Positions 33,674-53,599 of a stretch of DNA of 64,000 bases are shown in pieces; position 1 is the stretch's first letter; each line of letters begins with the position of its first letter. The position numbers were made by a program, and so were the translations under genes. The notes below the pieces were generated by a model. That model was not told where the DNA came from, did not search any database, and worked only from the letters and a program-made list of their open reading frames with translations. The DNA is from an uncultured Gammaproteobacteria bacterium (lineage in GTDB: Bacteria > Pseudomonadota > Gammaproteobacteria > CAWCPV01): positions 148,085 through 212,084 of the forward strand of contig CAWCPV010000007.1 in assembly GCA_963797555.1 (NCBI GenBank), given 5' to 3'.

Positions 33674-33765
33674 GTAACCGTTCAGACCCTCCCACCAGTT
33701 GATCGATGCGTTAAGAGCGCGTCCAGCGCAGCAGAGCCGCTCGGCTTGTCGTACACTCCCGGCTC

Positions 33766-34484
33766 ATGGATCAAGAGCCCTCTATTCCGCAGGCGATCAC
33801 GGCGAGCGGCCGGAGCTTTACCGAAGAGGAGATCTCCGCCATCGTCCGAATGGTGTCGATGTGCGTGGGCCTGAGTCGTTTTGAGCTGGCGCAGACCATC
33901 TGTGAGCTGCTGGGGTGGAGACGGGACAACGGAGCCCTGAAGTCCCGCGAGGGTCGGGATCTACTGGAGCGGTTGGAAGCTCGGGGGGATCTGAGGCTTC
34001 CCGCCAAGCGCACGGGCAGGCCCAAGGGGCGGCGCACCTGCACTGCGCAGACCGATCGGGGCGAACGCCGCGGCGAGATTGCCGGTGCGCTGCAGGAGGT
34101 GGCCCCGGTGGAGCTTCAGTTAGTGCGCCAGGCCGAGGGACGGGCATTGTGGCGCGAGCTTCTCGCGCGCTATCACTACTTGGGCTATGCCACACCCTTT
34201 GGGGCCCAGTTGGTCTATCTCATCTGCTCCCAGCGCCGGGAGGGGGAGGTGTTGGGCGGGCTCACCTACACCAGCCCGGCCTGGCGCATGCAGGCCCGCG
34301 ATGCGTGGATCGGCTGCGCTTTGCCGGGACCTGCTACCGGGCGGCCAACTGGTGCGAGGTGGGCGAGACCAGCGGACGCGGGCGCATGGACCGTGCGCAC
34401 CAACGCCATGGCAGAGCGATAAAGCGGGTCTTCCTCTACGCTCTGCACCCGCAGGCCAGAGAGCGCCTGCGCGGTGAGCGCTGA
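33766..34484 (+). pseudogene. DUF4338-like ORF of the IS66-like element (copy A, internal deletion at ~34313)
   Basis: The N-terminal 180 aa are identical to copy B. The C-terminal block RFAGTCYRAANWCEVGETSGRGRMDRAHQRHG...* is present, but ~190 bp between are missing relative to copy B. Confidence 0.6.
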
Positions 34485-34486
34485 AC

Positions 34487-36057
34487 TCAAGCGGGCGCAG
34501 GAAGCGGCGGTGCCTCAAAGCCGCGGCGTCGGTGGGCGAGGACATCTCTGAGATAGCACAGCGGGGAGCTCAATCGCAGCCGAGAAGTCTCGATCACACT
34601 GGCGAGCAGCGCCAGCGCCCGGCTGCCTTGTTCGCTGCGGGTCCCCTGGCTGATGCGACGCAGAATCACCCAGTGACGCAGCGCCCGCTCCGCCACGTTG
34701 TTGGTCAGCGGCAGCTGAGGCTCATCCAACACCCGGAAGATCGCCCCCCAGTCGTTGAGCAGCTCCTTGCCCAGCGCCTGGGCCTTGTCATAAGGGCAGC
34801 AGCTCATGCGTTCACACAGGGCCGTGGAGCTCGTTCGAGCTCGCCCGGGTGGGCTTGCCGCAGGGAGCCGCCCGGTCCCTCGCGGGCGTGATAGACGGCC
34901 TGCATCAGCGCATCGAGCAGGTCATAGACCGCCTGGCCGTAGCCCTGGAGGGTGGGCGAGAGGCAATCCCTCAGGCCCCGGGCCTTGCGAATGAGATGCG
35001 CCCAGCAACGCAGGCGCTTGGCATAGTCCCGATAGACCTGGTACCCATCGCTCATCAGATAGCCGCAGAAGAGATCCTCGATGAGGTTCTGAAACATCTC
35101 TTTGGCGCGAGAGCCGACCAAGAACAGCGCCGTCGAGGCCGAGATGAACACCCATAACCACAAGGGCTCTCCCCATTGCTTGTGCGGTGTCTCATCGGCA
35201 TGCATGAGGGCCGCTTCCAGCAACTGGGTCACCAGCTCATCCTCGACCGGCTCGCAGGCACGGGCGGTCTCCATCACGCATTGGTGGAGGGTGCCGATGC
35301 CGAGCGCCAGCCCAAACACCTCGTGCAGGAACTCCCGGACCAGGCGGATGGACAGGCGCATCCGAAACCGCAGCCAGACGATGAAGGCGCACAATCCCGG
35401 CCCCACCAGGCGCCACTCGCCAAGCTCCACCCCTCGCCAGCATCCCAAGTGCTCGGGCGCGCGGTGCGGCGCCTGCCGGGTCTCATGACCACAGTCGCAA
35501 CGGCTCTGGTAGTATACCTGCCGCGTGCAGGTCAGGCGCAGCCCCGGCGCCTGCTCATCGCCAAAGACCAAGTCCAGCCTATCAAAGGCGGTGTAGGGCT
35601 TCGCCTGCTCAGGATTGAGCGCCCCACCACACAGCGCACAACTTCCCGGCCGATGATGGTCCCAATCGGTGACTGTCAGCTTCTGGGCGCGCCCGAATCC
35701 CTGGGAGCCAGGCTGCCGGCCCGCTCGGCGCTGCGTCCCTGAGGTCTTGCCACTCGTGTCCTTTGCGCCCTTCTGGCCGCCAGCCCCGGGGAGGCCATCC
35801 TCCTCAGAACGGCTCTTGGCCTCCTCGTCCTCAGGACCGGCGTCGGCCTCTTCGTCCTCCCGCGCACGCAGCCAGGGGTCTTGACTGCTCGGCGGACGAG
35901 AGCTATTGGAGGGACTCTGATTGAGCCGCTCCCACGCTTCCTTGAGATCCTGCAGCAGGCGGATGCTCAGCGCTGCCAGCGCATCGGGATCCTTCTGCCT
36001 CAGCTCCAGAATGCGCTCCTCGCTGAGCTGACGAAGGTCGTGCTCCTTGAGCACCAT
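34487..36057 (-). pseudogene. tnpC: IS66-family transposase (TnpC-like), copy A, frameshift near 34805
   Basis: ORF 34804..36102 matches the copy-B transposase (zinc-finger CxxC..CxxC, MHADETP DDE block) up to ...HPGEL. The last 105 aa are in ORF 34487..34807 in another frame. Confidence 0.7.
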
Positions 36058-36304
36058 GATTGTGTGTGACAGTGAGGTCGAGGAACATCCTGCCAAGGGC
36101 ACCCAACTGTCTCACGCTGGAACCGTTTTGTCCAGCCCTCCGGGTCAAAATATTCCAGGGGGGTGAACGGTTACCTCATCGAGTGCAAAATGCCGGAACC
36201 GCCCGTCACGGAACCAGTTGGGATCAATTCGATTTGCTGCCAAGTGGTTGTGAAATAGTGAAACTGATATTTGACTGCCGGCGACCTACATGAGCGCAAT
36301 AGCG

Positions 36305-36632: not shown

Positions 36633-36651
36633 TGACGAAAGCTCCTTTCAA

Positions 36652-38443: not shown

Positions 38444-38921
38444 CGCGTCGCCTATTCTGAAAGGTGGGCCGGATTGGCCCTCCGTGGAAACTCTGACGTA
38501 GCCGGCGGCCTGCAGGTGCCTCACCTGCGAGGTGAGAATAGGCCACAGGCAAGGCAGATACAATCTGGGCGTCACACGCCGTTCGGTGTGCGACGGTCTT
38601 GGTCCGACGGCCCCACAGGTAGGCTGGATTGGCACAACGGGATGCGTCGGACCCCGGCTTCGCGCTTGCGGTAGCGCCTTTGTGCACACCAGCTCACGGT
38701 CGCAGAGCTTCCGCGGGCCTGCGGTTCTCGGTCCAGCGCGCCGTGAGAGGCTCGCAGCGAAGATCTGGTTCGGGCGCACCGCGGCGTCGTCGCCCTCCGG
38801 CCCGTCCGGCACGTCGAACAGGCCGCCGGTTTATGAAGCGCTGGAAGCCTCGCCGGGCGCCCTCCTTTGGCGCAGGGCCAGCCAACACGAACTCCCGATT
38901 CCCACGGTACCCCCTCAACTC

Positions 38922-39785
38922 TCACCCTCCGGTCTCGAATCCAGGATAGAGCGTCATTCCGCCGTCCACGAACAGCGTGATCCCGTGAACGTAATCCGAA
39001 TCGTCGGAGGCGAGCCATACCGCCGCACGGCCGATCTCGTCCGGCTCTCCGATGCGTTTATAGGGTATAAGCTTGAGAAGATCGGCGTATGCCTCGCGGC
39101 TTCCCCACGCTTCCATGTTGATGGGCGTACGAATGGCACCGGGCGCAATGCTGTTCACGCGGATGCGGTAAGGCGCCATTTCCTGCGCCATGCTTTTCAT
39201 CATGAGCATGACGCCGCCCTTCGATGCGGCGTAATTCACATGGCCCGCCCAAGGAATCACCTCGTGCACCGAGCTGATGCAAATGACCTTCCCGGCGGCG
39301 CAGGAGATGTCTCTGTCGACTCCTTGCTTCTTGAACTGACGCACGGCTTCCCGGGCGCAGAGGAACTGGCCGGTGAGGTTCACGCCGATCACGAAGTTCC
39401 AATCGGCAAGCGTCATCTCATCGAATCGTGCGTCTTTCTGAAGCCCGGCGTTGTTGACCAGGATGTCCAGGCGTCCAAACCGCTGGACGACGTCCTGAAC
39501 CATGGCCTGCACCTCGTCCTCCTTGCTGACATCCGCCGAATAAGCGTAGGACTCGGCGCCGCAGCGCTTGATTTCGTCCACGACCTCGTCGGCCAGCTCT
39601 TTGCGGCTCACATAATTGACCACCACGTCGGCACCGGCATGACCCAGGGCGGCGGCGATGGACTTGCCGATTCCCGAGTTGGCACCCGTCACCAGAGCTT
39701 TCTGGCCTTTCAATACTTTCACAACGGAGCAGCGCGGCATCACCGGTTCCGGAAATTCTTCCTCGATGAATCTGGTATCGATCAT
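38922..39785 (-). CDS. SDR-family oxidoreductase (glucose-1-dehydrogenase-like)
   Basis: TGANSGIGKSIA Rossmann motif, NNAG, and a YAASKGGV active-site segment; intact 287 aa. Confidence 0.8.
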   Translation of the reverse strand: MIDTRFIEEEFPEPVMPRCSVVKVLKGQKALVTGANSGIGKSIAAALGHAGADVVVNYVSRKELADEVVDEIKRCGAESYAYSADVSKEDEVQAMVQDVVQRFGRLDILVNNAGLQKDARFDEMTLADWNFVIGVNLTGQFLCAREAVRQFKKQGVDRDISCAAGKVICISSVHEVIPWAGHVNYAASKGGVMLMMKSMAQEMAPYRIRVNSIAPGAIRTPINMEAWGSREAYADLLKLIPYKRIGEPDEIGRAAVWLASDDSDYVHGITLFVDGGMTLYPGFETGG

Positions 39786-39972
39786 TTTCCCGTCCTCCAG
39801 TCGCTTTACGGATAGGCACTTCGGGCGCCCGCGTCGACCGCTTTCTCGCCTCAGAGCGAGGCGGAGTCAAGCCTCGGGGCGCGAGGCGGCCGCACCGAGA
39901 GTGCACAGACACGGTCTACCGCCGCACATGTTCCGGCCCCGCCCAGGCCACGCACCTTGGTCAGCGGCCCGC

Positions 39973-41472
39973 TCAGGCCGCCGCCTCCTCGCCGGGCAGT
40001 CCCTGCGCCGCCAGTGCGGCCCCGACCCTGAGCCCCCAGGCATAGATGGTGAGCGCCGGATTCACCCGGCTGGAGCGCGGCAGCACGCTGCCGTCCACCA
40101 CATAAAGCCCTTCCATCCCGTGTACCTTGCCCCCGGCATCCACCACCGAGTCGTCGGCATCCTTGCCGGTGACCAGCGTGCCGCAGGCATGGGCCGTGGC
40201 CTCGATCGGCATGAGGCGCGCGACGCTCACCAGGCCGAGGCCGAGCAAGCCGCGGCGGAAGGTCGCTACGAAGCGCCGGTGCTCGTCGAAGGCCGGGCGG
40301 ATTCGCGTCGGGTCGTAGTCGACCAGTGGGCGGTCCGTCCCCTCGGCCCGAGCCGCCACGCGGTTGTCGGGGTGGCTGCCGTCCTCGGTGGTGAGGAAGA
40401 ATCCGTAGGCATGCCGGCCCATGGCCGCCGCCAGGAAGCGCGGTGCAAAACCCGGCGCCTGCGTCACCACCAAGTCGCCGACGATGCCGCCTCCGAGGGC
40501 CTGAAGAATGCTGTGCGGGCAGTCGTCGTGCATCAGCAAGGCGGTTTTGCAGAGCACGTCGGTGCGCCGCGAGGCGCCGAAGGCGATGAGGATGGTGTTC
40601 AGGTGGGTCTTGAAGTTGCGCCCGATGCGCCGATAGCTAGGGAGCTGGGCGGCGAGCCCCTGGTCCTCCACGTACGCCTGCAGCAGGCGCGGCGAGTGCA
40701 TGGCGCCGGCGGCGAGCAGCACGTGGCGGGCGCCATATTCGGTGCCGTCGGCGAGCCGCACCCCGGTGATGAGCCGCGGGTTGCCGAAAGCACCGACCAG
40801 CGCAGCGACCGGGCTGCCCGTCACGATGCGCAGGTTGGGACGGTCCTCGACCTTGGCCAGCATGGCCGCCTCCGCATCGGACTTCAGCCGGTGGGGCACG
40901 GCATAGCCGTCGAAGTGGCTCGCCTCCGCGGGGTGCTCCAGGATGTCCGAAACCAGCCCGATGGGCATGGCATGCTCGTGCCAGCCGGCGTCCTTGCGCG
41001 CTAGCCGGGAGAATATGGCGCGCAGGTTGCGCTCGACCGGGAAGTTGCGCACCCCCAGCAGCCGCTCCGCCTCGTCGTAGAAGGGCGCCAGGTCCTCGTG
41101 GCCTATGGGCCAAGCGCGGCACTGGTGGGGCACGTCGTCGCCGAACTCATGGGGACTCAAGCGCAGCAGAGCCGCGCCGTACCACTTGGTCTTGCCGCCG
41201 AGGTTGAAATACTCCTCGGGGTAGACCGTTTTACCGCGGCCGTCCACCCAGGGCTCGTGGTTCTTGAAGGCGCCCTGGCGCAGGACCTTGTCGGGGTCCA
41301 GCGTGCTCCCGTCCTCCGGCAGCGCTGGCCCCTTCTCGATGACCAGCACGGAGCGTCCGGTCTGGGCCAGGCGATATGCGGCGGCAGAGCCGCCTGCGCC
41401 GGAGCCCACGATGACGTAGTCGTATGTCCTGTCGTTCATGCTCTCACTCCACAGTGCCGCGACTGCCGACAA
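39973..41472 (-). CDS. GMC-family FAD-dependent oxidoreductase
   Basis: N-terminal YDYVIVGSGAGGSAAAYRLA FAD fingerprint and a GMC C-terminal domain; intact ~490-500 aa. Confidence 0.8.
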   Translation of the reverse strand: MSAVAALWSESMNDRTYDYVIVGSGAGGSAAAYRLAQTGRSVLVIEKGPALPEDGSTLDPDKVLRQGAFKNHEPWVDGRGKTVYPEEYFNLGGKTKWYGAALLRLSPHEFGDDVPHQCRAWPIGHEDLAPFYDEAERLLGVRNFPVERNLRAIFSRLARKDAGWHEHAMPIGLVSDILEHPAEASHFDGYAVPHRLKSDAEAAMLAKVEDRPNLRIVTGSPVAALVGAFGNPRLITGVRLADGTEYGARHVLLAAGAMHSPRLLQAYVEDQGLAAQLPSYRRIGRNFKTHLNTILIAFGASRRTDVLCKTALLMHDDCPHSILQALGGGIVGDLVVTQAPGFAPRFLAAAMGRHAYGFFLTTEDGSHPDNRVAARAEGTDRPLVDYDPTRIRPAFDEHRRFVATFRRGLLGLGLVSVARLMPIEATAHACGTLVTGKDADDSVVDAGGKVHGMEGLYVVDGSVLPRSSRVNPALTIYAWGLRVGAALAAQGLPGEEAAA

Positions 41473-41500
41473 GCCGAGCCCGGCCCCCCGCAGGCCACGC

Positions 41501-42512
41501 TCACCGTTGCACCAACAAGACGGCGTGGCCGTCCGGATCCTTGACCATCAACCCCTTGGTGAACGGCATCCCGCTAAGCGTCACCACCCGCGGCGACACG
41601 AAGGTCACGTTCTGCCTCTCCAGGGCCGGCACCAGCTCTTCCAGGTCGTCCACCTGCAGCACCGAGTGCAGCGTGCACGGTGTCAGCGGCATGCGCCCCG
41701 GGCGGCGTCGGCCGGCCTCCCGCCGGGGTCAGGTACTGGAGAAATTCGATTCCAGGTCCTTCGGGGCTCTCCGGGTGCAGCCCGGTAACCCGCACCACCG
41801 CCCCGAACGCACCATCCAGGTGCTCCTGGGTGGGTCCGCTATTGAGGCTTCCGCCGCCCACCTTGAGGCCCAGGAGGTCCCGGTAGAAGGCCAGGCTGCG
41901 CTCGGTGCCCGAAACGGTAATGGCCGAATGGTCGATGCCCAGGAACAGCCGGTCGCTGGGGGCGTGCCACTTGGGCCGGCCCTTGTCCGGCGGGAAGTAA
42001 AGCAGCTCCAGGGGGTGACCGTCGGGGTCCTTGAACTTGAATGCCTGGACGCCGGCCGCCGCGGCATTCGCGGCCGGAATGGTCTGAGGCTCGCTGGAGA
42101 TGGCTTGAAACGGTGACTCGCCGAGGTGCCGGTAGGCCTTCTCCATGTCCGAGACCACGATGGCGAGGTGCTGAAACCACAGGTCGTTGGAGCGGCTGTC
42201 TATCAGGATCGGCTCGCCTCCCGGGGCCACGAACTGGTCCAGCTCGATGGCCTTGTCGCCCAGCCGCAGAGTCACGCTGCGCACCCGTGCGCCGAAAACC
42301 CCGGTGAGGGCGTCGTAACTCGGGTCCACGATGCGCCGCTCGGCGACCTTCTGGAAGCCGAGCACCTTCTCGTAGAAGGCCTCGGAGCGGTCAACGTCCG
42401 ATACGGTGAGCGCGAACCCCTGGACAGCACGGACCTGACCCAGAGCCGGCAAGGCAGCGAGGCCCAGGAGCGCGGCGCACAGCCATGCACCTGCCGTCCG
42501 CCTGCGCCACAT
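41501..42512 (-). CDS. Secreted two-domain VOC (glyoxalase/bleomycin-resistance/dioxygenase) family protein, apparent frameshift near 41700
   Basis: Start at the ATG at 42510-42512 (MWRRRTAGAWLCAALLGLAALPALG signal). Two VOC-like modules follow; the final ~60 aa (...VLQVDDLEELVPALERQNVTFVSP...GHAVLLVQR*) lie in a different frame (ORF 41501..41692). Confidence 0.6.
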
Positions 42513-42842
42513 CACCGCCGTTCCCAGAACTCTAGGCTCCATGCTCAGCCTCCACTCGCGGAATCCCAGTGCCTTCCGGTCTCGCACCGCCAGGCGCGGC
42601 TCCGGCGTGCCGTCTTTCGGGAGGGCTCCGCCCTTTCCTGCTCCCGGCCCGTACAACAGCTCAGAGCTTGTGAAGAAATCGTCGCGAGCGGCCCGAGAGC
42701 AAGGCGCACGGAGCGCAGCGACGAGACATATCAAGTAGATAGGCGAGGAGCGAGCACCGCGCAACGCCGCTATCGGGACGCGCAGCAGATCTATTCACAA
42801 GCTCTCAGACCTGTTCATGCCGGCGTGGTCCCGTAACGTGCT

Positions 42843-43319
42843 CTAGAACCCGAACTTCTTTCCGAGCAGATGATCCAGGGACAGCTTCCCCGGTCCGTGC
42901 AGCAGCAAGACCAACAGCATCAGCCCCCACACCTCGTGCTGCTCCAGGCCCGCTGCCATCAGCCCCGGATAAGAGATCACCGCGATGATGTTGAACACGA
43001 ACAGCACGAATGCCGCGAATCTGCCCGCGAGCCCCAGCACCAGCAGCACCGGGAAGAACAGCTCGGTGAAGGCGCCCATGTAGGCGGCCACCTCGGGCGG
43101 CAGCAGCGGCACGTGATACTCCTCCTGAAACAGCAGGACGGTCGTGTCCCAGCTCTGGATCTTGCTGAGCCCCGACCTGAAGAAGCCGTTGGCCACCCAC
43201 AGCCGCAACGCGAGATCCGCCAACGGGGACAGGAAATCCAGCCCGCGGTACACCACCTTTACCCAGCCGGCGGCACGCCCGAACAGCGACGGGGGCCCTG
43301 ATTGCATGACAGCGCTCAT
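42843..43319 (-). CDS. DoxX-family membrane protein (BufD-like position)
   Basis: 158 aa with four TM helices and the DoxX pattern; overlaps the DUF2063 gene by 4 bp. Confidence 0.7.
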   Translation of the reverse strand: MSAVMQSGPPSLFGRAAGWVKVVYRGLDFLSPLADLALRLWVANGFFRSGLSKIQSWDTTVLLFQEEYHVPLLPPEVAAYMGAFTELFFPVLLVLGLAGRFAAFVLFVFNIIAVISYPGLMAAGLEQHEVWGLMLLVLLLHGPGKLSLDHLLGKKFGF

Positions 43320-43975
43320 GTTTCACCTCCGATAGCGAACACGGGTTCCTCGTTCGAAGCCACGAATTCACTGCTGAAAAACTCCACCAAAGTGCCGCGT
43401 AGCACGTGATGCTGCAGGCAGGCGCTCAGGTCGAAATCCGATTGCACGTCCAAGGCGGATTCGCAGGCCTGGGCAAACGTTCGGTCCGCGCCCAGCTCCC
43501 GTAGCAGGGTGAACTCGGCTTCGCCGAGCGGCTCCAGCTCGACCTCCAACCGCTGCCGGGCGACGAGGATGCGAACGCCGCCCTCGGCAAGGTCCACGAC
43601 AGGATCGCCTTCGAAGCCCTCCTGATTGACTTGCCAGATGCGCAAGATGGGGTACGGAGACCGCACCAGGCGGGTCGCAGGGTGCAGGCGAAAACGAAGT
43701 CGTCCGTAATGGTCGGGGTCGAACGCCGCGAGCGCCGCCAGGTCCATCGGAGCGTGGCTCGCCTCGTGGAACACCCGGTGATAGGCCCACTCCAGCCGCG
43801 CAACGTCCGGCAGATAGGCTAGCTCCGCGGCGGGCGCCAACGCCTCCAGGAACTCGGCCAACTCTGCGCCGAAGTCGTGGAGGTTTCCGGATCGGGACGG
43901 GTGGGCCGGGACATAGCTCCTCGCCGCATAGCGGAAGAAGTCCCCGCCCACGAGCTTGTGCACCACCGGGTACAC
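43316..43975 (-). CDS. DUF2063-family protein (BufC-like partner of an MNIO enzyme)
   Basis: 219 aa in the DUF2063 pattern (putative DNA-binding-fold domain), immediately downstream of the DUF692 gene. Confidence 0.65.
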   Translation of the reverse strand: MYPVVHKLVGGDFFRYAARSYVPAHPSRSGNLHDFGAELAEFLEALAPAAELAYLPDVARLEWAYHRVFHEASHAPMDLAALAAFDPDHYGRLRFRLHPATRLVRSPYPILRIWQVNQEGFEGDPVVDLAEGGVRILVARQRLEVELEPLGEAEFTLLRELGADRTFAQACESALDVQSDFDLSACLQHHVLRGTLVEFFSSEFVASNEEPVFAIGGET

Positions 43976-44122
43976 GGCTCCCAGGGCGTCCGTCAGGCTC
44001 GCAAAGGTGTTGTTGCGGTAAACCTGGAGCCTCTCTTGCCGCTCAGCCCCCGACCCTGTATCCGCCCAGCGAGACCGGCATCCGTCTCGCCGAACACGGA
44101 CTGAGCGAAGGCGAGCTGCATA

Positions 44123-44991
44123 TCACGCGGCGAGCGCACGGCGTTCCTCCAGGCAACTTTCCGCTCGGCGGGCCTCGGCCAGCAGCACGGCGAGAGGCGG
44201 GATGTCGGCGTCCCACTCGATGAGCGTCGGAGCCGCCCCGAAGCGCTCCAGGGCGCAGCGATAGAGCGCCCAGACCGGATCGGCGACGCGCCGGCTGTGG
44301 GTGTCGATGAGAATCTCTCCGTCCTCGAAGCGGTTGACGCTGTAGCCGGCCAGATGAATCTCCTGCACCGGGGCGACGGGGATGGCGTCGAGGTAGTCGT
44401 GCGCGTCGAAGCCGTGGTTCGTCGCGCTGACGTAGACGTTGTTCACGTCCAGCAGGATCCCGCAGCCCGAGCGGCGGGAGACCTCGGACAGGAACTCCGC
44501 CTCGGGGATCGTAGAGTCTTCATACTGCAGGTAGCTCGATACGTTCTCCACCAGTATCTGGCGACCCAGGAATTCCTGGACCTGCGCGATGCGCTCCGCC
44601 ACGTGCCCGAGCGCTTCCTCGGTGTAGGGCAGCGGCAGCAGATCGTTCAGGTAGCGCCCCCCACGGAGCTCCAGGACAGATGCTCCGAGACGAGGAACGG
44701 CTCGACGCGCCGCGAGAGGGCACTGAGCTGCTGCAGGTGCCCCACACTCAGCGGGTCTGTGGAGCCGAGGGACAGCCCCACCCCGTGCAAGCTCACGGGA
44801 TAGTGGGCGCGCACCCGCTCCAAGTAATCCAGCGGCGGGCCGCCGCCGAAGTAGTTCTCGCTGTGCACCTCCAGCCATCCGACGGCTGGAAGCGTGTCCA
44901 GCACCTCGCGGTAATGGACCGCCCGGAGGCCGATCCCGGCACGCGCCGGGACCGGCTCCAGCTCGCCGCGCTTTGCATCCGGAGCGAGCAT
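44123..44991 (-). CDS. DUF692 / MNIO (multinuclear non-heme iron oxidative) enzyme, BufB-like, apparent frameshift near 44640
   Basis: ATG at 44989-44991 (MLAPDAKRG...[13 protein letters not shown]...EVHSENYF). The C-terminal half (...[19 protein letters not shown]...[20 protein letters not shown]...) is in ORF 44123..45220. Both halves match DUF692 (xylose-isomerase-like TIM barrel). Confidence 0.7.
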
Positions 44992-44999
44992 GACCCGCC

Positions 45000-45266
45000 T
45001 CACCCCTTCTTCGGCTCCAGGCTGCCGCCCACGATCTTCTCGCAGGCCCCCTTGGGCAGATAGATCCACGACATGGGGTCGCTGTCCATCTTGACCTGCC
45101 CGGCACAGGCGTGGGTGCTGGTCTGACAGTCGTTCTTGCCGGCCTTGACGACGCCGTAACACTTCTCGGCTTTCTTCTCGGCGGCCACGGCCTGTCCGGC
45201 GCTCGCCAGGCCCAGCGCAACCACGCCAGCCATCGCGGAAATCAGAAGGGTCTTCGTGTCTCTCAT
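45000..45266 (-). CDS. bufA: DUF2282-type bufferin-like RiPP precursor (Sec signal peptide + four-Cys core)
   Basis: [29 protein letters not shown], then a core with four Cys (EKCYGV, NDCQ, HACAG, GACEK). Its stop at 45000-45002 lies 9 bp before the DUF692 start. Confidence 0.7.
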
Positions 45267-45613
45267 CGACGGTCTCCTATCAGCATCTCACTCAGGATTC
45301 AGGCTCCTTGCCCAAGGCGCCGCGCTCTGCGCGGCCTCGTCCCTGAGAACCGACCCGCGGGACGCGGGGCCTGGCCCGGCGTGCTCCCCGCGGATGGTGA
45401 CAATTGTGGCGGGTCGATCTCACGGCACGTTCACGAACGGATAACATTTCTGTTACGGGCGGGATCTGCGCCGTCGTCTCCGCCGGTGCCCCCAACCCCC
45501 GGCTCGGCGGGGCGCGCAGGAGCAGCAAGACGGGTCTGGTCGTGCACAGAGTTCCGCCGGGAACACCCGGCCGCGGGGTGCCCGCGCCGTGCCTTGGGAG
45601 AAGCCCCAAGCCC

Positions 45614-46405
45614 TCAGACCGGCCTGTGGCCGTGATACTCACAGAAGATGCAGCGCTTCTTGTTCTGGTGGTGAAGCTTGGCGCAAAAGACGCGCCGCGC
45701 GCCCCTCGCCCGGACGTAAACCTCGGCCGCAAGCAGCATTCCCAGCGGCGGCGCGGTGAAGTACAGCCACAGCGAGCCCCAGGCGTGGGCGGAGAAGGCC
45801 GAACCGAAGGTGCGGGCAGGGTTCATGCTCATGCCGGAGAGCGGCGCCTCGATGCTGATGTAGATCGCCACCAGGGCGCCCGCGAACAGGCCCGTGAGGT
45901 GCGCGATGCGCGCGGTGTTCGTCACGAGGAGCACCATGCTCATAAGCAGAAAGGAGATGAGCAGCTCCGCGGCGAAAGCCACCCATGGCCCCTGCGGACC
46001 AGGCATCGTCACCACATAGTTCACCTGCATGTGGGCCACGAACCCGCGAGACAGGTAGACCATGAGGGCGACGCCCAGGGTGCCGCCGAGAAACTGGGCC
46101 AAAACGTAGAACAGAGCGTCCCAGCCCGCGACCTTGCCGAGCCGGAAGAAGGTCAGGGTCACCGCGGGATTGATGTGCGCCCCCGACTGCTTCCCCCAGG
46201 GGGAGTAGATGATGCCGATGGCGGTCAGGCCCATGGCGAGCCCGAAGATCACGCGCCGCACGACCGGATCGGGGATGAGTGGCGGGACCGGAGACCCAAG
46301 GTGCAGAAGAACGATTCCGACCAGGCAGGCCGAGACCATGAACAGGCCGAGACCCGCGCCCTCCATCAGGTACTCAGGCCAGTGCCGCTGCAGTGCATGC
46401 CACAT
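45614..46405 (-). CDS. aqpZ: Aquaporin Z with a Cys/His-rich C-terminal extension
   Basis: Two NPA boxes (HINPAVT, SMNPARTF) and six TM helices. Unusual ~30-aa tail ...FCAKLHHQNKKRCIFCEYHGHRPV. Confidence 0.85.
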   Translation of the reverse strand: MWHALQRHWPEYLMEGAGLGLFMVSACLVGIVLLHLGSPVPPLIPDPVVRRVIFGLAMGLTAIGIIYSPWGKQSGAHINPAVTLTFFRLGKVAGWDALFYVLAQFLGGTLGVALMVYLSRGFVAHMQVNYVVTMPGPQGPWVAFAAELLISFLLMSMVLLVTNTARIAHLTGLFAGALVAIYISIEAPLSGMSMNPARTFGSAFSAHAWGSLWLYFTAPPLGMLLAAEVYVRARGARRVFCAKLHHQNKKRCIFCEYHGHRPV

Positions 46406-46513
46406 GTTGAAACCTCCGCACGGAGAACCCCAGGAGGCGGCGCCATCATCCGGCTGCGGCTGCGAAGCAGGCCTGCGCTGCCATGGTGTCCGCCTGGCGG
46501 CGTCTCCGATCCC

Positions 46514-48125
46514 TCAGTCGGGGCGGATTCCTGGCGTGTTCATACGCATCCGGTACAGCCCCGTCTGCGCCGCGAGATAGAGCGTCTTGCCGTCGGCATC
46601 TCCCCAGGCGAGGTTGTGGGGATGCTCGGGCCCACGCAGCGTGCCGAGATGTTTGCCTTCGGGGGAGAGGATCCACAGGCCGCCGGGCCCCGACACATAG
46701 AGGTTGCCGAGCCGGTCCACCTTGATGCCGTCGATGGCGTCCTCACCGGGCTGGGCCGTCATGTCGAAGAACACCTCTCCCGCGCCCAACGTGCCGTCGG
46801 GTTTCACGGGATAGCGCATGACCACCTTGCGCTTCGGGTCCCAGTCCCCTACGTACAGGTAGCTCTCGTCGGGCGAGAACGCGATGCCGTTGGGGCCGGC
46901 CAGATCCCGGGCGACCATATCGACCTTGCCGTTGCGCACGCGGAACACGCCGCTGAACGGGAGTTCCTTACGGCGATCGTCGAAGAATTTGGGCAGCCCG
47001 AAGGGCGGGTCGGTGACGTAGAGGTCGCCATTGGAACGGTAGACGAGGTCGTTCGGGCTGTTCAGCCGCTTGCCCTGATAGCGGTCGGCGAGCACGGTGA
47101 GCACACCGTTCTTCTCCAGGCGAGTGACCCGTCGGTTGCCGTGCTCGTTGATGGTGAGCCGGTGCTCCCGGTCCAGGGTCAGGCCGTTGGAGCCCGGCTG
47201 GCCATACTCGACGATGTCGAAGCCGGTATAGCCGCTCTTCGGGCGGAAGATGAACAGCTCGCCCTGCGGTGTCCAGCGGTAAATGATGTTGTCGTTGGGG
47301 TCGCTGAACAGCAGGTAGCCGTCCGGGTGCCACACCGGCCCCTCGGTAAACTGGAAGCCTTCGGCCAGCTTCTCCAGCTTGGGATTCTCGGGAACGATCG
47401 CATCCAGCGCCTTATCGAGGCGGACCACCTCCACGGGAACGGACACTCCCACCCCAGCGTGTTCCGGTCCATAGAAGTCCAGGGTTGCGGAGCGCACCCA
47501 GATGAAGTTCCCGGGCGGATCGGACAGCGGACCATTGACGCCGGACACCGCGAGCTGGATGCGTTGGCCCGGCTTGAGGTCGCGACCGATGACCACGCAG
47601 TTCGGGGCGTTGTAGCCACGCACGAGCCCACCTCCGGTCTGCCCCAAGACCTGCGGCAGGCGGCCGTCCACCCAGACCTCGGCGTAGTCGTCGACCACGA
47701 TCTCGAAGACCGCGGTAGAGCCGGTGGTGCCGAACCGCCCGATGCGCTCCGGGATGGTGATGGCGGTGCGGTACCAGTTGAAGCTGAGCCGCCCGGTTCC
47801 GCGGCGCCCATCGAGTGCGGCGGGATCCAGCACTTCCCAGCCCGAATCGTCGAAGCCGACCGCTCCGGCGCGGGGGACCACGTCGTGAGTCCTATTGGGC
47901 GGGGCCGCTCGGCTTCAGGTCCGGACCGGGGCTGTGGTGCGCGACGTCGACCACCTGCGCCTCGCTGTAACGCCACTGCCCCTTCACGAGAGCGACACCT
48001 GCCGCGCTGCGCAGGTCGACCGTCGCGTCCGGCCGGTGGTCGAGGGCACTCAAAGACCTCGGGGCCGCGCAGCAGGCGGCCGGCAGACCAAGCGCTGCGG
48101 CCGTGAGCAGCAGTGCGAGGGCGCG
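46514..48125 (-). CDS. Secreted SMP-30/gluconolactonase/LRE-like beta-propeller protein with an N-terminal beta-sandwich domain, apparent frameshift near 47885
   Basis: ORF 46514..47881 contains the SGL pattern (FTEGPVWHPDGYLLFSD...NGLTLD...NDLV...NGIAFSPD). A signal-peptide ORF (VSRALALLLTAAALGLPAACCAAP...) lies upstream in another frame (47892..48227). Confidence 0.55.
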
Positions 48126-48441
48126 GCTCACGACGCACCTCCCGCGGAGATCGGCTTCACCACGAAGTACAGCGATGTGGCACTTCTGCGCCGCCAACGG
48201 CCGGGCTATCTGCAACGGCCGGAACATCGACGACAGGCGGCGGTGCCAATTGGCAACGTGTCCGGTCTAACCCCTGTGCGGGCGGGTGGCATTGCGGCCG
48301 GGCAAGGCAAGCCGGTGAGGGGTGCGACCTAGACGAAAAGCATCCCTCCCGAGTCTCCCTGACGTGAACCGATCGGTGCGGACCCGCATGCCATGGTGCT
48401 GTGGGGCTGGGGTGAAACACCCCCGGCTACCGATTGGGCAC

Positions 48442-48801
48442 TCAAAACGTAATACATTTATCCCTTTCCAAAATAGCGGACATATAGTCCGACGTTCCCT
48501 TAATAACTGCCCCTTCGACTAAATCGGCAGATACAATCTGTCTTCCTGTAGCACACGCACTACATACCCAAATCTGGACTCCGGCGCTCTGAATCACAGC
48601 CAACAAATCCTTGAGTGGCGGCAGATTCACTGCAATCACATGGTTGGCGACCCCAATCTTGGCAAGGATCACGGCCTCATTCCAAAGCCATAGAACCACA
48701 TCATGTCCTTGTTCCTTGGCTGCCTTGGCAACCATGAAGGGAAGCGTCGCCATTGTTGGATCATCCGTTCCCCGAGTTCCGGAAATAATGAATGTCGTCA
48801 T
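48442..48801 (-). CDS. DsrE/DsrF-like (sulfur-relay/peroxiredoxin-like) family protein
   Basis: 119 aa starting MTTFIISGTRGTDDPTMATLPFMVAKAA...; strong Shine-Dalgarno sequence 8 nt upstream. Confidence 0.6.
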   Translation of the reverse strand: MTTFIISGTRGTDDPTMATLPFMVAKAAKEQGHDVVLWLWNEAVILAKIGVANHVIAVNLPPLKDLLAVIQSAGVQIWVCSACATGRQIVSADLVEGAVIKGTSDYMSAILERDKCITF

Positions 48802-48810
48802 AACGTTGTT

Positions 48811-48819
48811 ACCTCCCTT
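48811..48819 (-). promoter_or_regulatory. Shine-Dalgarno sequence AAGGGAGGT for the DsrE-like gene
   Basis: The reverse complement of 48811-48819 reads AAGGGAGGT, placed 9 nt before the ATG at 48801. Confidence 0.5.
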
Positions 48820-49408
48820 CGTCTTAGCCATCGTCTTCCCAACCGGATCGGGTCCGAGGTTCTGACCGCTCGCCTCTGGTGTCGCCGTCTGCTCCTTTGG
48901 AAGCTGGACCAACCGACCTCGCGGCACCGTCCAGCGGCGCGTTCGCCCCGCTCCCGACCTGTCCCTGCGGGGTTTACTCCCATTGTCACGGGAAGTCAAT
49001 GTCACCACCGGCTACAAGCCGGTGGCTTGAGTTGGGCACTGTAAGTGCCGGTTCCGGCTGAAGCCCGCTGCAAACCACCCGCCCCAAGGCGGTTCATTGC
49101 GACTCCAAGTCGCCCCCCTCAACGACCTGAAACCGATCTTCGGTCCTCTGCCCAACATCGCCGCGCAACACCCCCTTGTGGTACTTGGTACACTACACCA
49201 AGTGCACGTGCAGCCGAAAAACCGAGTGCGTCCCTCGCCTATAAGCGCTCATCCCCCTAAGCTACAAGGGCAGGCCCAAAGCTTCCAGCTCAAGCTGGGG
49301 GTTTGAACCCTCCCATGGGGTGACAATCAATAGGAAATTTTCCCGTTTTTCGGTTCGCTGCGGAAGGTAAGATCTGACTCCGGCACCGCATAACCACGAT
49401 GGGCACCC

Positions 49409-50326: not shown

Positions 50327-50379
50327 CTGTCCGCCGGGCGCAGCCAGGGGCGGGAACGTGCTTTGCTGGCTTCTTCCGT

Positions 50380-50740
50380 TCACCCAGGTCGGGGCTGATC
50401 TGTCGCGCCGGCTGACACCTTCAACACGAGGTTGTTGACGTGTTCTCGGATCGGCTCAATGCCCTGGGCATCGTAGTCTTCTCGCGTTGGGCGAATGACG
50501 TACTTGATTCGAGAGGCTTCGTCTGTGGGCGGATTCGGGCGATCCCACGGCCGCTTCGGCAGGTTGTCTCCCCTGACGCGATGTGTCTTCCATGCCCATT
50601 CTCCCTGGACCTCCCCGTCTTTCCAGTGGTGGGCGAGGCGCGTAATAGGGTCCCATATCCATTGCACCTCCCAGTCAGCCTGAACCGGTCGACAGTCAAC
50701 TTCTGCGCCATGATGAGGTAAAAGGACGGCCATAGCGTAC
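50380..50740 (-). pseudogene. Displaced 3' end of the sacsin-like/DUF3883 gene (continues 31609..33673 in frame if the 36175-50740 segment is re-inverted)
   Basis: The reverse complement of 50733-50740 (GTACGCTA) equals the 8-mer at 33666-33673. Joining ...GAC AGG TAC GCT A to the reverse complement of 50732..50380 continues the reading frame for 118 codons (MAVLLPHHGAEVDC...) to a stop. Confidence 0.5.
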
Positions 50741-50857
50741 GTAACCGTTCACCCCCCTGGAATATTTTGACCCGGAGGGCTGGACAAAACGGTTCCAGCG
50801 TGAGACAGTTGGGTGCCCTTGGCAGGATGTTCCTCGACCTCACTGTCACACACAATC

Positions 50858-52426
50858 ATGGTGCTCAAGGAGCACGACCTTCGTCAGCTCAGCGAGGAGC
50901 GCATTCTGGAGCTGAGGCAGAAGGATCCCGATGCGCTGGCAGCGCTGAGCATCCGCCTGCTGCAGGATCTCAAGGAAGCGTGGGAGCGGCTCAATCAGAG
51001 TCCCTCCAATAGCTCTCGTCCGCCGAGCAGTCAAGACCCCTGGCTGCGTGCGCGGGAGGACGAAGAGGCCGACGCCGGTCCTGAGGACGAGGAGGCCAAG
51101 AGCCGTTCTGAGGAGGATGGCCTCCCCGGGGCTGGCGGCCAGAAGGGCGCAAAGGACACGAGTGGCAAGACCTCAGGGACGCAGCGCCGAGCGGGCCGGC
51201 AGCCTGGCTCCCAGGGATTCGGGCGCGCCCAGAAGCTGACAGTCACCGATTGGGACCATCATCGGCCGGGAAGTTGTGCGCTGTGTGGTGGGGCGCTCAA
51301 TCCTGAGCAGGCGAAGCCCTACACCGCCTTTGATAGGCTGGACTTGGTCTTTGGCGATGAGCAGGCGCCGGGGCTGCGCCTGACCTGCACGCGGCAGGTA
51401 TACTACCAGAGCCGTTGCGACTGTGGTCATGAGACCCGGCAGGCGCCGCACCGCGCGCCCGAGCACTTGGGATGCTGGCGAGGGGTGGAGCTTGGCGAGT
51501 GGCGCCTGGTGGGGCCGGGATTGTGCGCCTTCATCGTCTGGCTGCGGTTTCGGATGCGCCTGTCCATCCGCCTGGTCCGGGAGTTCCTGCACGAGGTGTT
51601 TGGGCTGGCGCTCGGCATCGGCACCCTCCACCAATGCGTGATGGAGACCGCCCGTGCCTGCGAGCCGGTCGAGGATGAGCTGGTGACCCAGTTGCTGGAA
51701 GCGGCCCTCATGCATGCCGATGAGACACCGCACAAGCAATGGGGAGAGCCCTTGTGGTTATGGGTGTTCATCTCGGCCTCGACGGCGCTGTTCTTGGTCG
51801 GCTCTCGCGCCAAAGAGATGTTTCAGAACCTCATCGAGGATCTCTTCTGCGGCTATCTGATGAGCGATGGGTACCAGGTCTATCGGGACTATGCCAAGCG
51901 CCTGCGTTGCTGGGCGCATCTCATTCGCAAGGCCCGGGGCCTGAGGGATTGCCTCTCGCCCACCCTCCAGGGCTACGGCCAGGCGGTCTATGACCTGCTC
52001 GATGCGCTGATGCAGGCCGTCTATCACGCCCGCGAGGGACCGGGCGGCTCCCTGCGGCAAGCCCACCCGGGCGAGCTCAACGAGCTCACGGCCCTGTGTG
52101 AACGCATGAGCTGCTGCCCTTATGACAAGGCCCAGGCGCTGGGCAAGGAGCTGCTCAACGACTGGGGGGCGATCTTCCGGGTGTTGGATGAGCCTCAGCT
52201 GCCGCTGACCAACAACGTGGCGGAGCGGGCGCTGCGTCACTGGGTGATTCTGCGTCGCATCAGCCAGGGGACCCGCAGCGAACAAGGCAGCCGGGCGCTG
52301 GCGCTGCTCGCCAGTGTGATCGAGACTTCTCGGCTGCGATTGAGCTCCCCGCTGTGCTATCTCAGAGATGTCCTCGCCCACCGACGCCGCGGCTTTGAGG
52401 CACCGCCGCTTCCTGCGCCCGCTTGA
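50858..52426 (+). CDS. tnpC: IS66-family transposase (TnpC-like), intact in copy B
   Basis: ATG at 50858 (MVLKEHDLRQLSEERILELRQKD... leucine-zipper-like N-terminus), CxxC...CxxC zinc finger, DDE region including MHADETP, ~523 aa. Confidence 0.8.
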   Translation: MVLKEHDLRQLSEERILELRQKDPDALAALSIRLLQDLKEAWERLNQSPSNSSRPPSSQDPWLRAREDEEADAGPEDEEAKSRSEEDGLPGAGGQKGAKDTSGKTSGTQRRAGRQPGSQGFGRAQKLTVTDWDHHRPGSCALCGGALNPEQAKPYTAFDRLDLVFGDEQAPGLRLTCTRQVYYQSRCDCGHETRQAPHRAPEHLGCWRGVELGEWRLVGPGLCAFIVWLRFRMRLSIRLVREFLHEVFGLALGIGTLHQCVMETARACEPVEDELVTQLLEAALMHADETPHKQWGEPLWLWVFISASTALFLVGSRAKEMFQNLIEDLFCGYLMSDGYQVYRDYAKRLRCWAHLIRKARGLRDCLSPTLQGYGQAVYDLLDALMQAVYHAREGPGGSLRQAHPGELNELTALCERMSCCPYDKAQALGKELLNDWGAIFRVLDEPQLPLTNNVAERALRHWVILRRISQGTRSEQGSRALALLASVIETSRLRLSSPLCYLRDVLAHRRRGFEAPPLPAPA

Positions 52427-52428
52427 GT

Positions 52429-53338
52429 TCAGCGCTCACCGCGCAGGCGCTCTCTGGCCTGCGGGTGCAGAGCGTAGAGGAAGACCCGCTTTATCGCTCT
52501 GCCATGGCGTTGGTGCGCACGGTCCATGCGCCCGCGTCCGCTGGTCTCGCCCACCTCGCACCAGTTGGCCGCCCGGTAGCAGGTCCCGGCAAAGCGGGCC
52601 GGGTCCACCAGGGTCTCCAGCAGCCAGGGACGCAGCCCATAGTGGCGCTCCCAATCCCCTACGATGCGCCGGCTGCCCAAGGCCAGCACGTGGCTCGCCA
52701 GATGAGGCACTTTCACCCAGGGCAGAATCAGGAAGCGCCCCTGATTGACGATGCGTGCGAGGTGCGCTTTGCGCGCTCTCTCGTCCCAGCCGAATCCACG
52801 CATCGCGGGCCTGCATGCGCCAGGCCGGGCTGGTGTAGGTGAGCCCGCCCAACACCTCCCCCTCCCGGCGCTGGGAGCAGATGAGATAGACCAACTGGGC
52901 CCCAAAGGGTGTGGCATAGCCCAAGTAGTGATAGCGCGCGAGAAGCTCGCGCCACAATGCCCGTCCCTCGGCCTGGCGCACTAACTGAAGCTCCACCGGG
53001 GCCACCTCCTGCAGCGCACCGGCAATCTCGCCGCGGCGTTCGCCCCGATCGGTCTGCGCAGTGCAGGTGCGCCGCCCCTTGGGCCTGCCCGTGCGCTTGG
53101 CGGGAAGCCTCAGATCCCCCCGAGCTTCCAACCGCTCCAGTAGATCCCGACCCTCGCGGGACTTCAGGGCTCCGTTGTCCCGTCTCCACCCCAGCAGCTC
53201 ACAGATGGTCTGCGCCAGCTCAAAACGACTCAGGCCCACGCACATCGACACCATTCGGACGATGGCGGAGATCTCCTCTTCGGTAAAGCTCCGGCCGCTC
53301 GCCGTGATCGCCTGCGGAATAGAGGGCTCTTGATCCAT
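52429..53338 (-). pseudogene. DUF4338-like ORF of the IS66-like element (copy B), frameshift near 52790
   Basis: ORF 52436..53338 (MDQEP...YHYLGYATPFGAQLVYLI...ARDAWI) and ORF 52429..52917 in the +1 frame (GFGWDERARKAHLARIVNQGRFLILPW...WERHYGLRPWLLETLVDPARFAGTCYRAANW...) together cover a full DUF4338-type protein. Confidence 0.6.
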
Positions 53339-53599
53339 GAGCCGGGAGTGTACGACAAGCCGAGCGGCTCTGCTGCGCTGGACGCGCTCTTAACGCATCG
53401 ATCAACTGGTGGGAGGGTCTGAACGGTTACTCGATGAGTCGTTCTACGATTGGCAGCCTCGTAATGGCGAGTTTACCGGACCGAGTGCCGCCGCGCACGA
53501 AACCGAATTCAACAAAGAAAATCAAGGCGACACCCGAGTCGGTGTTTAGCGTCGCGTAGGGCTGACTGAGCGGAGAAAACCATACTAGTAACCCACAAT

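Follow-up and report, generated by a model that had tools for sequence, protein, structure and literature searches.

Four closely packed genes, bufA, bufB, bufC and bufD, occupy positions 45266..42843 on the minus strand of a 64-kb stretch of DNA (the whole stretch analyzed, here called the window), and the coordinates of all four were confirmed. The operon features are as follows.

bufA, 45266..45000, minus strand: 88-aa Buf1/DUF2282 precursor; stop codon at 45002..45000
bufA signal peptide, residues 1 to 28, 45266..45183, minus strand: predicted cleavage between AVA and AE
bufA core, 45182..45003, minus strand: 60 aa; Cys at core positions 8, 19, 26 and 47
bufB, 44991 (ATG)..44123 (stop), minus strand: MNIO (DUF692) maturase; 289 aa with one base restored; -1 frameshift as read
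bufB frameshift site, 44662..44657, minus strand: G6 run; GTGGAGGGGCGC in relatives, GTGGGGGGCGC in the window, one base shorter
bufC, 44121 (ATG)..43316 (stop), minus strand: DUF2063/RRE partner; 268 aa with one base restored; -1 frameshift as read
bufC frameshift site, 44037..44030, minus strand: AAGAGAGG in the window, AAGAGAAGG in a 96.5%-identical relative (L082); one A missing
bufD, 43319..42843, minus strand: 158-aa DoxX-family membrane protein; Pfam DoxX (E 3.3e-17) and DoxD (E 6.6e-07)

The bufA stop and bufB start are separated by 8 nt and the bufB stop and bufC start by 1 nt, and bufC and bufD share an ATGA overlap in which the bufD ATG overlaps the bufC stop, so that start and stop codons do abut or overlap as the first-pass annotation had described. 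The A-B-C-D order was seen again across 80 related genome loci (bufD present in 63 of 80), with the bufA-MNIO-DUF2063 adjacency kept in most of them; given this recurrence and domain E-values of 1e-17 to 1e-109 for the operon proteins, chance is not an issue. DoxX genes are frequent, though not universal, in bufferin clusters. No second DUF2282 or MNIO copy was found within the window, an Rfam scan of the whole window gave no match, and a scan of the operon for sigma-70 promoters and terminators found neither.

BufA matched Pfam PF10048 (DUF2282) over profile positions 2 to 53 of 53 (E 2.6e-25; 88.6 bits against a cut-off of 22.4 bits) and thereby passed the DUF2282/BufA1 model comparison suggested at first pass. 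Its Sec-like signal peptide, called by manual anatomy, comprises an n-region (MRDTK), an h-region (residues 6 to 24; mean Kyte-Doolittle value, 1.87) and a c-region (AVA before the cut, AE after it), whereas the remainder of the protein is hydrophilic (-0.58); the same layout is kept in BufA orthologues. All four Cys residues (Cys36, Cys47, Cys54 and Cys75) were invariant in 76 of 76 aligned syntenic orthologues, within a conserved motif that includes ...ACAG...W.YVPKGxCEKIVGG, and the earlier description of a Sec signal peptide followed by a four-Cys core is thus borne out. The BufA protein of the 96.5%-identical relative L082 was 100% identical, the two genes differing at 4 codons, all synonymous. 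The unmodified core has a computed monoisotopic mass of 6369.12 Da. A PDB sequence search with BufA returned no match, and the identical protein in JGI/IMG is labeled "uncharacterized membrane protein."

BufB as read matched the Pfam MbnB_TglH_ChrH profile in two frames (positions 2 to 97 and 96 to 262). With one base restored, the match was continuous (positions 2 to 262, 363 bits), and the repaired protein scored 398.4 bits against the NCBIfam MNIO_BufB equivalog (cut-off, 310 bits; profile positions 1 to 262). A PDB search with BufB matched 3BWW and more distant MNIOs only, and the alignment to 3BWW continued uninterrupted over the shift site. The best BufB matches (72 to 73%) were from metagenome-assembled genomes of Acidiferrobacterales and Competibacteraceae. 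The match of BufC to Pfam DUF2063 extended from profile positions 19 to 83 as read to positions 2 to 83 of 83 when repaired (E 1.7e-23), and in most of the 80 loci repaired BufC could be aligned in one piece (residues 1 to 248) with an intact orthologue; BufC had no match in a PDB sequence search.

These matches, together with agreement with the buf1ABCD gene order of Caulobacter vibrioides (PMC11626156), uphold the bufferin-like order of DUF2282 precursor, MNIO, DUF2063 and DoxX proposed at first pass, and on sequence grounds the locus is almost certainly a bufABCD bufferin biosynthetic gene cluster of the canonical Buf1 type. The analysis demonstrates which genes are present, the order in which they stand and the conservation of the Cys pattern, and that close relatives carry the cluster intact. 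The family had been introduced as recently described; the bufferin identity stands, and no rarity should be read into it, as bufferins are the largest MNIO-associated RiPP family. PF10048 and the NCBIfam entries already bear bufferin names, and the locus is a further Buf1 example from a family that is known and very large.

As read, neither bufB nor bufC is an intact open reading frame, each carrying one -1 frameshift. A single frameshift at about 44640 had been reported in the DUF692 gene; the bufB shift is present but lies about 20 nt away, in the G6 run at 44662..44657, and the count was one short, the second shift being in bufC. The bufB site was placed by alignment against L081 to L087, by frame delta and by the intact 289-aa product of L082. 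Relatives at 96.5% identity are in frame at both sites: their BufB is a complete 289-aa protein, and their BufC N terminus is read in frame. Neither repaired gene contains an in-frame stop. In bufC, the G5 run at 44051-44047 was ruled out as the deletion site by the L082 alignment, which puts the missing A in AAGAGA[A]GG (44037-44030). Programmed frameshifting and transcriptional slippage were rejected as explanations, since both sites are in frame in close relatives, shifts also affect many unrelated genes, and neither the G6 run nor the AGAGG context is a known slippery site. The frameshifts bear on the activity of the cluster and not on its family assignment.

Beyond the operon, the window holds the following genes and insertion sequence copies.

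Downstream same-strand genes, 38922..42542, minus strand: VOC, GMC and SDR genes with Pfam and NCBIfam matches
Two-domain VOC/glyoxalase with signal peptide, 42542..41501, minus strand: frameshifted near 41670
GMC oxidoreductase, 41472..39973, minus strand: Pfam/NCBIfam match
Glucose-1-dehydrogenase-like SDR, 39785..38922, minus strand: Pfam/NCBIfam match
Left IS66-family copy, 33674..36174, unstranded: terminal inverted repeat GTAACCGTTCA; Pfam DDE_Tnp_IS66; 8-bp flanks GTACGCTA and CTCATCGA
Right IS66-family copy, 50741..53430, unstranded: inverted orientation; intact 537-aa transposase; flanks TAGCGTAC and TCGATGAG

Read as reverse complements, the right-copy flanks TAGCGTAC and TCGATGAG match the outer and inner flanks of the left copy, and these swapped 8-bp target duplications place the operon within a 14.6-kb segment inverted between the two IS66-family copies. 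Both the inverted segment and the neighbors (aqpZ, a lactonase and several oxidoreductases) had been named at first pass, and both were recovered, the latter as MIP/aquaporin, SGL lactonase, VOC, GMC, SDR and ADH genes. In 14 of 59 related loci, bufD is followed by same-strand orthologues of the downstream genes (GMC in 12 of the 14), and loci with this bufD-SDR/VOC/GMC arrangement come from Accumulibacter, Methylotenera, Burkholderiales, Methylococcales and Chromatiales. These SDR, VOC and GMC genes are present in the window too, in a different order and with a 300-nt gap after bufD. It is a doubtful proposition that the SDR, signal-peptide VOC and GMC genes are more than incidental neighbors and act together as an accessory module in a Buf1 sub-clade; such a module might provide DoxX with a redox partner or regenerate that partner, or else carry out further processing of the peptide or its ligand. 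The bufferin/MNIO landscape papers searched make no mention of an SDR/VOC/GMC extension.

Upstream of bufA, one further element was noted.

Candidate ECF-sigma-type promoter, 45431..45456, minus strand: GTAACA-N15-CGTGA, lying some 190 nt ahead of the bufA ATG

The element resembles the Caulobacter sigmaF site, GTAACC-N16-CGAA (PMC3511200), and lies within a block that close relatives share without change, between flanks that vary; a similar GTAACA-N15-CGTCT stands upstream of bufA in three related loci (L050, L058 and L074). Over the whole window, the ECF motif count (2, against 2.85 expected) was no higher than chance, and the sequence is put forward as a weakly inferred promoter candidate. 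None of the neighbors examined was an ECF sigma/NrsF pair.

A mechanism can be proposed by homology with buf1 of Caulobacter vibrioides (PMC11626156) and with the systems of PMC13097082, and chemistry, export, copper binding and regulation would here be those of the family. BufA would be made as an 88-aa precursor whose core Cys19 and Cys26 would be oxidized, still in the cytoplasm, to 5-thiooxazoles by the MNIO iron enzyme BufB acting together with BufC, its DUF2063/RRE partner. The peptide would then be exported by Sec and cut by signal peptidase after Ala28, a disulfide would form between the outer core residues Cys8 and Cys47, and the folded 60-residue product would sequester surplus periplasmic copper; the DoxX protein BufD would be a conserved accessory, dispensable for modification. 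In characterized bufferin 1, 5-thiooxazoles arise from CysII and CysIII, and a disulfide links CysI to CysIV (PMC11626156). Since only the two central Cys are converted there and the outer pair is a disulfide, the mature BufA core would be expected at about -10 Da. The first-pass expectation of Cys-to-thiooxazole conversion agrees with the family chemistry; its mass signature of -4n Da, read as -4 Da for each of four Cys, does not.

Taken as a whole, we favor a Buf1 cluster that works by the family mechanism and whose frameshifts are assembly errors (probability, roughly 0.65). The bufB and bufC frameshifts are most likely consensus errors from a metagenome assembly that is error-prone and probably long-read, in view of at least eight other broken genes in the 64 kb and of the single-base indels between the IS copies; if so, the operon would be functional in the organism. 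The other genes split by ±1 indels are two GT4 genes, VOC, SGL (at 47904), a DruA-like gene, the left IS66 transposase, a STAND-TPR gene (at least 2 to 3 shifts in a span of 650 nt) and, probably, a DDE transposase. The IS66-family copies, otherwise 100% identical, differ by two 1-nt indels that lie 9 nt from each other (34827 and 34836). Less probable, though to be taken seriously, is that the same Buf1 cluster has really been inactivated in this strain by genuine single-base deletions, which would cut BufB short at residue 114 and break BufC in two, leaving intact BufA to be exported unmodified or the operon to decay; both BufB and BufC are required in Caulobacter (PMC11626156). The bufB, bufC, VOC and SGL frameshifts are common to the window and to contig L081 (assembly ERZ25039463; 99.8% identical to the window), frameshifts are shared with the k-mer contigs L087 and L090 too, and the Logan contigs of run ERR11718635 also bear them. 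L090 crosses the bufC site cleanly, at 100% identity over 1,673 nt, and the bufC and VOC indels lie outside long homopolymers. Sharing of the frameshifts by three near-identical public contigs speaks against random error if the data sets are independent. The IS66-family copies and the recent IS-mediated inversion suggest a plastic genome as well. Against genuine deletion, ±1 indels occur in unrelated genes at about one per 5 kb and are clustered in the STAND-TPR gene and the left IS66 copy, and the disrupted genes in the window contain no nonsense codons, their GC3 coding signal remaining strong. Past the bufB shift, the pattern of substitutions has the look of selection (12 synonymous and 5 nonsynonymous codon differences from L082). 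L081 has five further indel events and GATC>GATT substitutions, and the substitutions in L081 and L087 are typical of methylation-related long-read miscalls, so these contigs are probably not independent short-read evidence; the short-contig assemblies L087 and L088 break or turn noisy exactly at the bufB G-run. An exact-pattern scan of metagenome contigs for other bufB G-run lengths gave 0 matches; the known JGI relatives were absent from those contigs too, so that the collection evidently lacks this species and the scan favors neither reading.

Two further readings concern function. That the cluster is functional but serves something other than copper buffering here, such as another metal (Cd, Cr or Au) or redox/sulfur stress together with DoxX and the SDR/VOC/GMC oxidoreductases, appears improbable. 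It draws on the induction of the Caulobacter operon by chromate and cadmium as well, via sigmaF (PMC3511200), on induction of the Cupriavidus and Legionella homologues by gold, and on DoxX, which is dispensable for copper protection (PMC11626156) and for which other stress roles have been proposed; no copper-related or copper-resistance gene was found among the neighbors examined, and the oxidoreductase genes recur after bufD in the loci counted above. That synteny is only partial (about 24% of loci), however, and looser in the window, the metal-binding Cys pattern of BufA is fully conserved, and all characterized MNIO/DUF2063 products bind copper (PMC11626156, PMC13097082). Far less credible still is that bufA encodes an ordinary "uncharacterized membrane protein," no RiPP precursor at all, with the MNIO gene beside it by accident. 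The JGI/IMG name says as much, and the Pfam description of DUF2282 still reads "predicted integral membrane protein"; yet the sole hydrophobic stretch of BufA is its N-terminal signal peptide, the MNIO and DUF2063 genes stay adjacent to bufA in most related loci, and published biochemistry contradicts this reading, a DUF2282-family product having been demonstrated experimentally as a modified, exported peptide (PMC11626156).

The main consequence of the Buf1 assignment is correct annotation, from the IMG "uncharacterized membrane protein" to Buf1 bufferin precursor, and little beyond that. The frameshifts in this contig should not be taken as biology without read support. The conserved SDR/VOC/GMC tail in a subset of beta- and gammaproteobacterial bufferin clusters may merit attention for the function of DoxX.

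The closest characterized system is Caulobacter vibrioides buf1ABCD (CCNA_03363-03366, bufferin 1; Leprevost et al. 2024, PMC11626156), which has the same four genes in the same order, a precursor with a Sec signal peptide and, like the locus here, an MNIO that passes the BufB equivalog model. The count and position of Cys residues, which the first-pass annotation had proposed to set against a characterized bufferin, agree closely: four Cys spaced 11/7/21 here and 11/8/21 in Caulobacter BufA1 (core Cys 12, 23, 31 and 52, from residue numbers in the main text of PMC11626156), with D before CysII and A after CysIII in both. The core is 60 aa here and 68 aa in Caulobacter BufA1, and the host is a gammaproteobacterial-type metagenome organism, unlike Caulobacter. 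No adjacent sigF/nrsF pair was found here, one nucleotide is deleted in each of bufB and bufC in this assembly, and the downstream VOC, GMC and SDR genes are not part of the Caulobacter buf1 cluster. The gig (gold-induced genes) operons of Cupriavidus metallidurans and Legionella pneumophila, known from Au and Cu transcriptional induction and genetics, are alike in their DUF2282/DUF692/DUF2063/DoxX architecture and are now recognized as buf1-type clusters.

Related families share parts of this plan. Buf2 clusters (BUF_6/12Cys), e.g., C. vibrioides buf2, have the MNIO and DUF2063 pair, a Sec-exported Cys precursor and thiooxazole chemistry, but 6 or 12 Cys instead of four and usually no DoxX; with four Cys only and an NCBIfam BufA2 score of 31.3 bits (cut-off, 60 bits), the precursor here falls outside Buf2. 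In the oxazolin/HvfABCX, fontiphorin and gonophorin systems (EGKCG-repeat "captophorins"; PMC13097082), an MNIO and a DUF2063/RRE partner likewise install 5-thiooxazoles; these systems yield copper-binding products and often include DoxX genes. The precursor here lacks the EGKCG repeat, and the Hvf models of NCBIfam scored below their cut-offs (HvfB, 242 versus 360; HvfC, 41.6 versus 142; HvfX, 63.9 versus 80), which sets it apart from Hvf/oxazolin. Methanobactin (MbnABC) is also a copper-binding RiPP made by an MNIO-superfamily enzyme acting on precursor Cys, but BufB reached only 72.8 bits against MbnB (cut-off, 325 bits) and its partner is a DUF2063 protein, not MbnC. The methanobactin chemistry is oxazolone-thioamide, unlike the thiooxazoles of Buf1, and methanobactin is a small secreted chalkophore whose leader is cleaved, whereas the Buf1 product would be a Sec-exported, folded peptide of 60 aa.

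The bufferin operon bufABCD consists of four minus-strand genes arranged in tandem from 45266 to 42843, and ORF positions and Pfam matches agree with the coordinates and gene calls of the first-pass annotation.

45266..45000 (-): bufA, precursor, 88 aa; matches Pfam DUF2282/PF10048 over the entire profile (E = 2.6e-25), the model against which the first-pass annotation had proposed aligning it
ATG 44991, stop 44123 (-): bufB, MNIO family MbnB_TglH_ChrH; match divided over two frames at profile positions 97/96
ATG 44121, stop 43316 (-): bufC, DUF2063 match
43319..42843 (-): bufD, DoxX match

The junctions abut or overlap, as had been read from the sequence: 8 nt separate bufA from bufB, 1 nt separates bufB from bufC, and bufC and bufD overlap by 4 nt (ATGA).

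Two of these genes are frameshifted. bufB is one base short at a G6 run (44662..44657; GTGGAGGGGCGC in 96.5%-identical relatives versus GTGGGGGGCGC in the window), and bufC is one base short at 44037..44030 (AAGAGAAGG in the 96.5%-identical relative L082 versus AAGAGAGG in the window). The single frameshift annotated previously is the one in bufB; that it was the only one does not hold, the second one-base deficit in bufC having been overlooked. Unrepaired BufC matches DUF2063 from profile position 19 only, its first 48 codons lying in a different frame. With one base restored at each site, BufB (289 aa) covers Pfam positions 2 to 262 in a single stretch (363 bits), passes the NCBI curated MNIO_BufB equivalog (398 bits; cut-off, 310), and aligns with the solved MNIO structure 3BWW unbroken over the shift site; repaired BufC (268 aa) covers DUF2063 positions 2 to 83 of 83.

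Related loci were taken from a scan with one genome per species (80 nearest loci; BufB, 55 to 73% identical), in which the top BufB matches were metagenome-assembled genomes of Acidiferrobacterales and Competibacteraceae. Most of the 80 keep the order bufA-bufB-bufC-bufD, a minority having B-C-A-D, and their bufB and bufC are intact and colinear with the repaired proteins. All four precursor Cys are kept in 76/76 orthologues (77-sequence alignment), within a motif that, after 14 residues not given here, runs ..T...ACAG...W.YVPKGxCEKIVGG. The BufA N terminus has the anatomy of the Sec signal peptide that had been proposed (MRDTK, a 19-residue hydrophobic stretch, and then AVA|AE). Models of sister families all fell under their cut-offs (BufA2, 31 bits versus 60; HvfB, 242 versus 360; HvfC, 42 versus 142; HvfX, 64 versus 80; MbnB, 73 versus 325); on this sequence evidence, therefore, bufABCD is a Buf1-type bufferin cluster, and Buf2, oxazolin, and methanobactin clusters were ruled out. 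The DUF2282 precursor, the MNIO_BufB match, the conserved Cys, and the gene order bear out the bufferin interpretation made at first pass.

The operon lies in a segment between two inverted IS66-family copies.

33674-36174: left IS66-family copy, terminal repeat GTAACCGTTCA
36175-50740: inverted segment holding bufABCD (14,566 nt)
50741-53430: right IS66-family copy, inverted relative to the left, terminal repeat GTAACCGTTCA

The 8-bp flanks of the copies are swapped, in that the right inner flank reads as the reverse complement of GTACGCTA, the left outer flank, and the right outer flank as that of CTCATCGA, the left inner flank (pairs GTACGCTA/TAGCGTAC and CTCATCGA/TCGATGAG). Since such swapping is the signature of recombination between IS copies, it indicates that the segment was inverted in this way, in line with the inversion noted earlier. 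Compared with the right copy, the left one is missing 191 nt and carries two additional single bases. Beside the transposase, each copy carries an ORF matching DruA (Druantia protein A, PF14236; 52432-53389 [-] and 33715-34484 [+]), a passenger or accessory gene that is not expected in this IS family.

We put the probability that the bufB and bufC frameshifts are consensus errors at about 0.65 to 0.7. One-base breaks across which Pfam coordinates run on between frames occur in GT4 genes at ~6.9 kb (~6945) and ~12.7 kb, a VOC gene at ~41.67 kb (a 1-nt insertion, GCT[G]CAC), and a DruA-like gene at ~52.8 kb. The left IS66 transposase (34827/34836) and probably a DDE transposase (~29660) are likewise broken by ±1 indels, the tail of a STAND-TPR gene lies in three further frames within 650 nt (60070-60720), and the SGL lactonase (47904) has C4 versus C3 in relatives, giving 111 + 455 aa versus 538 aa. 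Indels of both signs thus affect many unrelated genes, at a density of ~1 per 5 kb, with no nonsense codons seen in the frame-broken genes of the window and the GC3 coding signal kept downstream of every break, all of which speaks against real inactivation of bufB and bufC. So do the bufB codons downstream of the shift, where differences from L082 are mostly synonymous (12 synonymous, 5 nonsynonymous); bufA differs by 4 synonymous and 0 nonsynonymous changes. The IS copies point the same way: their otherwise 100% identical sequences differ by a pair of 1-nt indels separated by 9 nt.

Real inactivation, which we regard as less likely than error, would account for the bufB, bufC, VOC, and SGL shifts being common to the window and L081 (a 99.8%-identical contig from another assembly), data sets that are possibly not independent, and for a Logan contig (run ERR11718635), possibly built from the same reads as the window, being 100% identical to it over the bufC site. 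On the side of error, L081 differs from the window by five additional indel events and by several GATC>GATT changes, the latter a pattern associated with methylation-related long-read miscalls. Consensus errors from long reads probably remain uncorrected in the contig, and any frameshift in it therefore needs read support. On either reading, the operon stays intact in the lineage at large. The two shifts are a question of data quality.

Elsewhere in the window, a large STAND-type NTPase (AAA_16/NPHP3_N) followed by TPR repeats over four reading frames (59513-63602 [-]) is probably a single gene of ~1,360 aa with several indels. Two bacterial dynamin-like GTPases (~605 aa each) form a tandem pair at 23890-25701 and 26033-27853 (+). 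Within an EPS/O-antigen-type cluster (Wzy, ABC exporter, and GT4 genes), a 989-aa ORF (3446-6412 [-]) combines a GT4 glycosyltransferase with an asparagine-synthase (AsnB-like) region; this may be a genuine fusion or, in view of the indel errors in other parts of the window, a lost-stop-codon artifact.

Upstream of bufABCD, on the same strand (-), lie an MIP/aquaporin gene and the SGL lactonase. The downstream neighbors encode a two-domain VOC protein with a signal peptide, a GMC oxidoreductase, a glucose-1-dehydrogenase-like SDR, and an Ahr-type aldehyde reductase. Of 59 related loci whose sequence extends 1 kb or more past bufD, 14 (L009, L027-L029, L031, L035, L040, L045, L054, L057, L067, L068, L072, and L078; several proteobacterial orders) have an SDR orthologue (60 to 67% identical) on the same strand after bufD, starting 37 to 100 nt from it in 13; 12 of the 14 also have the GMC gene, and 4 the VOC gene. 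These three families are unmentioned in the bufferin/MNIO landscape papers searched. The window has the same genes (38922-42542 [-]) in another order and after a 300-nt gap, so cotranscription with bufD is doubtful there.

No sigma/anti-sigma pair was found among the neighbors scanned, and a sigma-70 promoter scan gave no match. A candidate ECF-type promoter, GTAACA-N15-CGTGA, sits 190 nt upstream of bufA in a block invariant among close relatives; its sequence is similar to the sigmaF site of Caulobacter (GTAACC-N16-CGAA), and three distant loci have a similar candidate motif (GTAACA-N15-CGTCT). It stays a weak lead because the motif is no commoner in the window than expected by chance. The MIP-bufA interval contains an 89-nt GC-rich stretch (45470-45558 [-]) in the window, L081, and the k-mer contig L087 that is absent from the 96.5%-identical relatives. 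L082 (JGI 3300056996 contig) encodes a second, upstream DUF2282/BufA1 paralogue (1408-1713; 101 aa) beside HbpS-like and cupin genes; no second DUF2282 gene occurs in the window, where that position is taken by DsrE, an unknown ORF, and the IS.

BufB and BufC of Caulobacter are necessary and sufficient for turning CysII and CysIII into 5-thiooxazoles (-4 Da each), a disulfide links CysI to CysIV, a Sec signal peptide drives export and is then cleaved, DoxX is not needed for modification, and the folded peptide, which binds both Cu(I) and Cu(II), gives protection from excess copper (PMC11626156). A later study supports the view that MNIO/DUF2063 pairs generally form 5-thiooxazole (PMC13097082). 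The mechanism of bufABCD is most likely that of its family, the window locus itself giving gene identity alone. BufA would yield a predicted 60-aa mature peptide (unmodified monoisotopic mass, 6369.12 Da) with predicted thiooxazoles at core Cys19 and Cys26 and a predicted Cys8-Cys47 disulfide, shifting its mass by an expected ~-10 Da in total. When the Cys were counted and positioned against published bufferin 1, as the first-pass annotation had suggested, both had four, at core positions 12, 23, 31, and 52 in bufferin 1 (spacing, 11/8/21) and spaced 11/7/21 in BufA, and both had Asp before CysII and Ala after CysIII. Precursor, enzymes, and gene order show no departure from the bufferins, a large, characterized RiPP family with models named for it in Pfam and NCBIfam, of which this cluster is an additional member.
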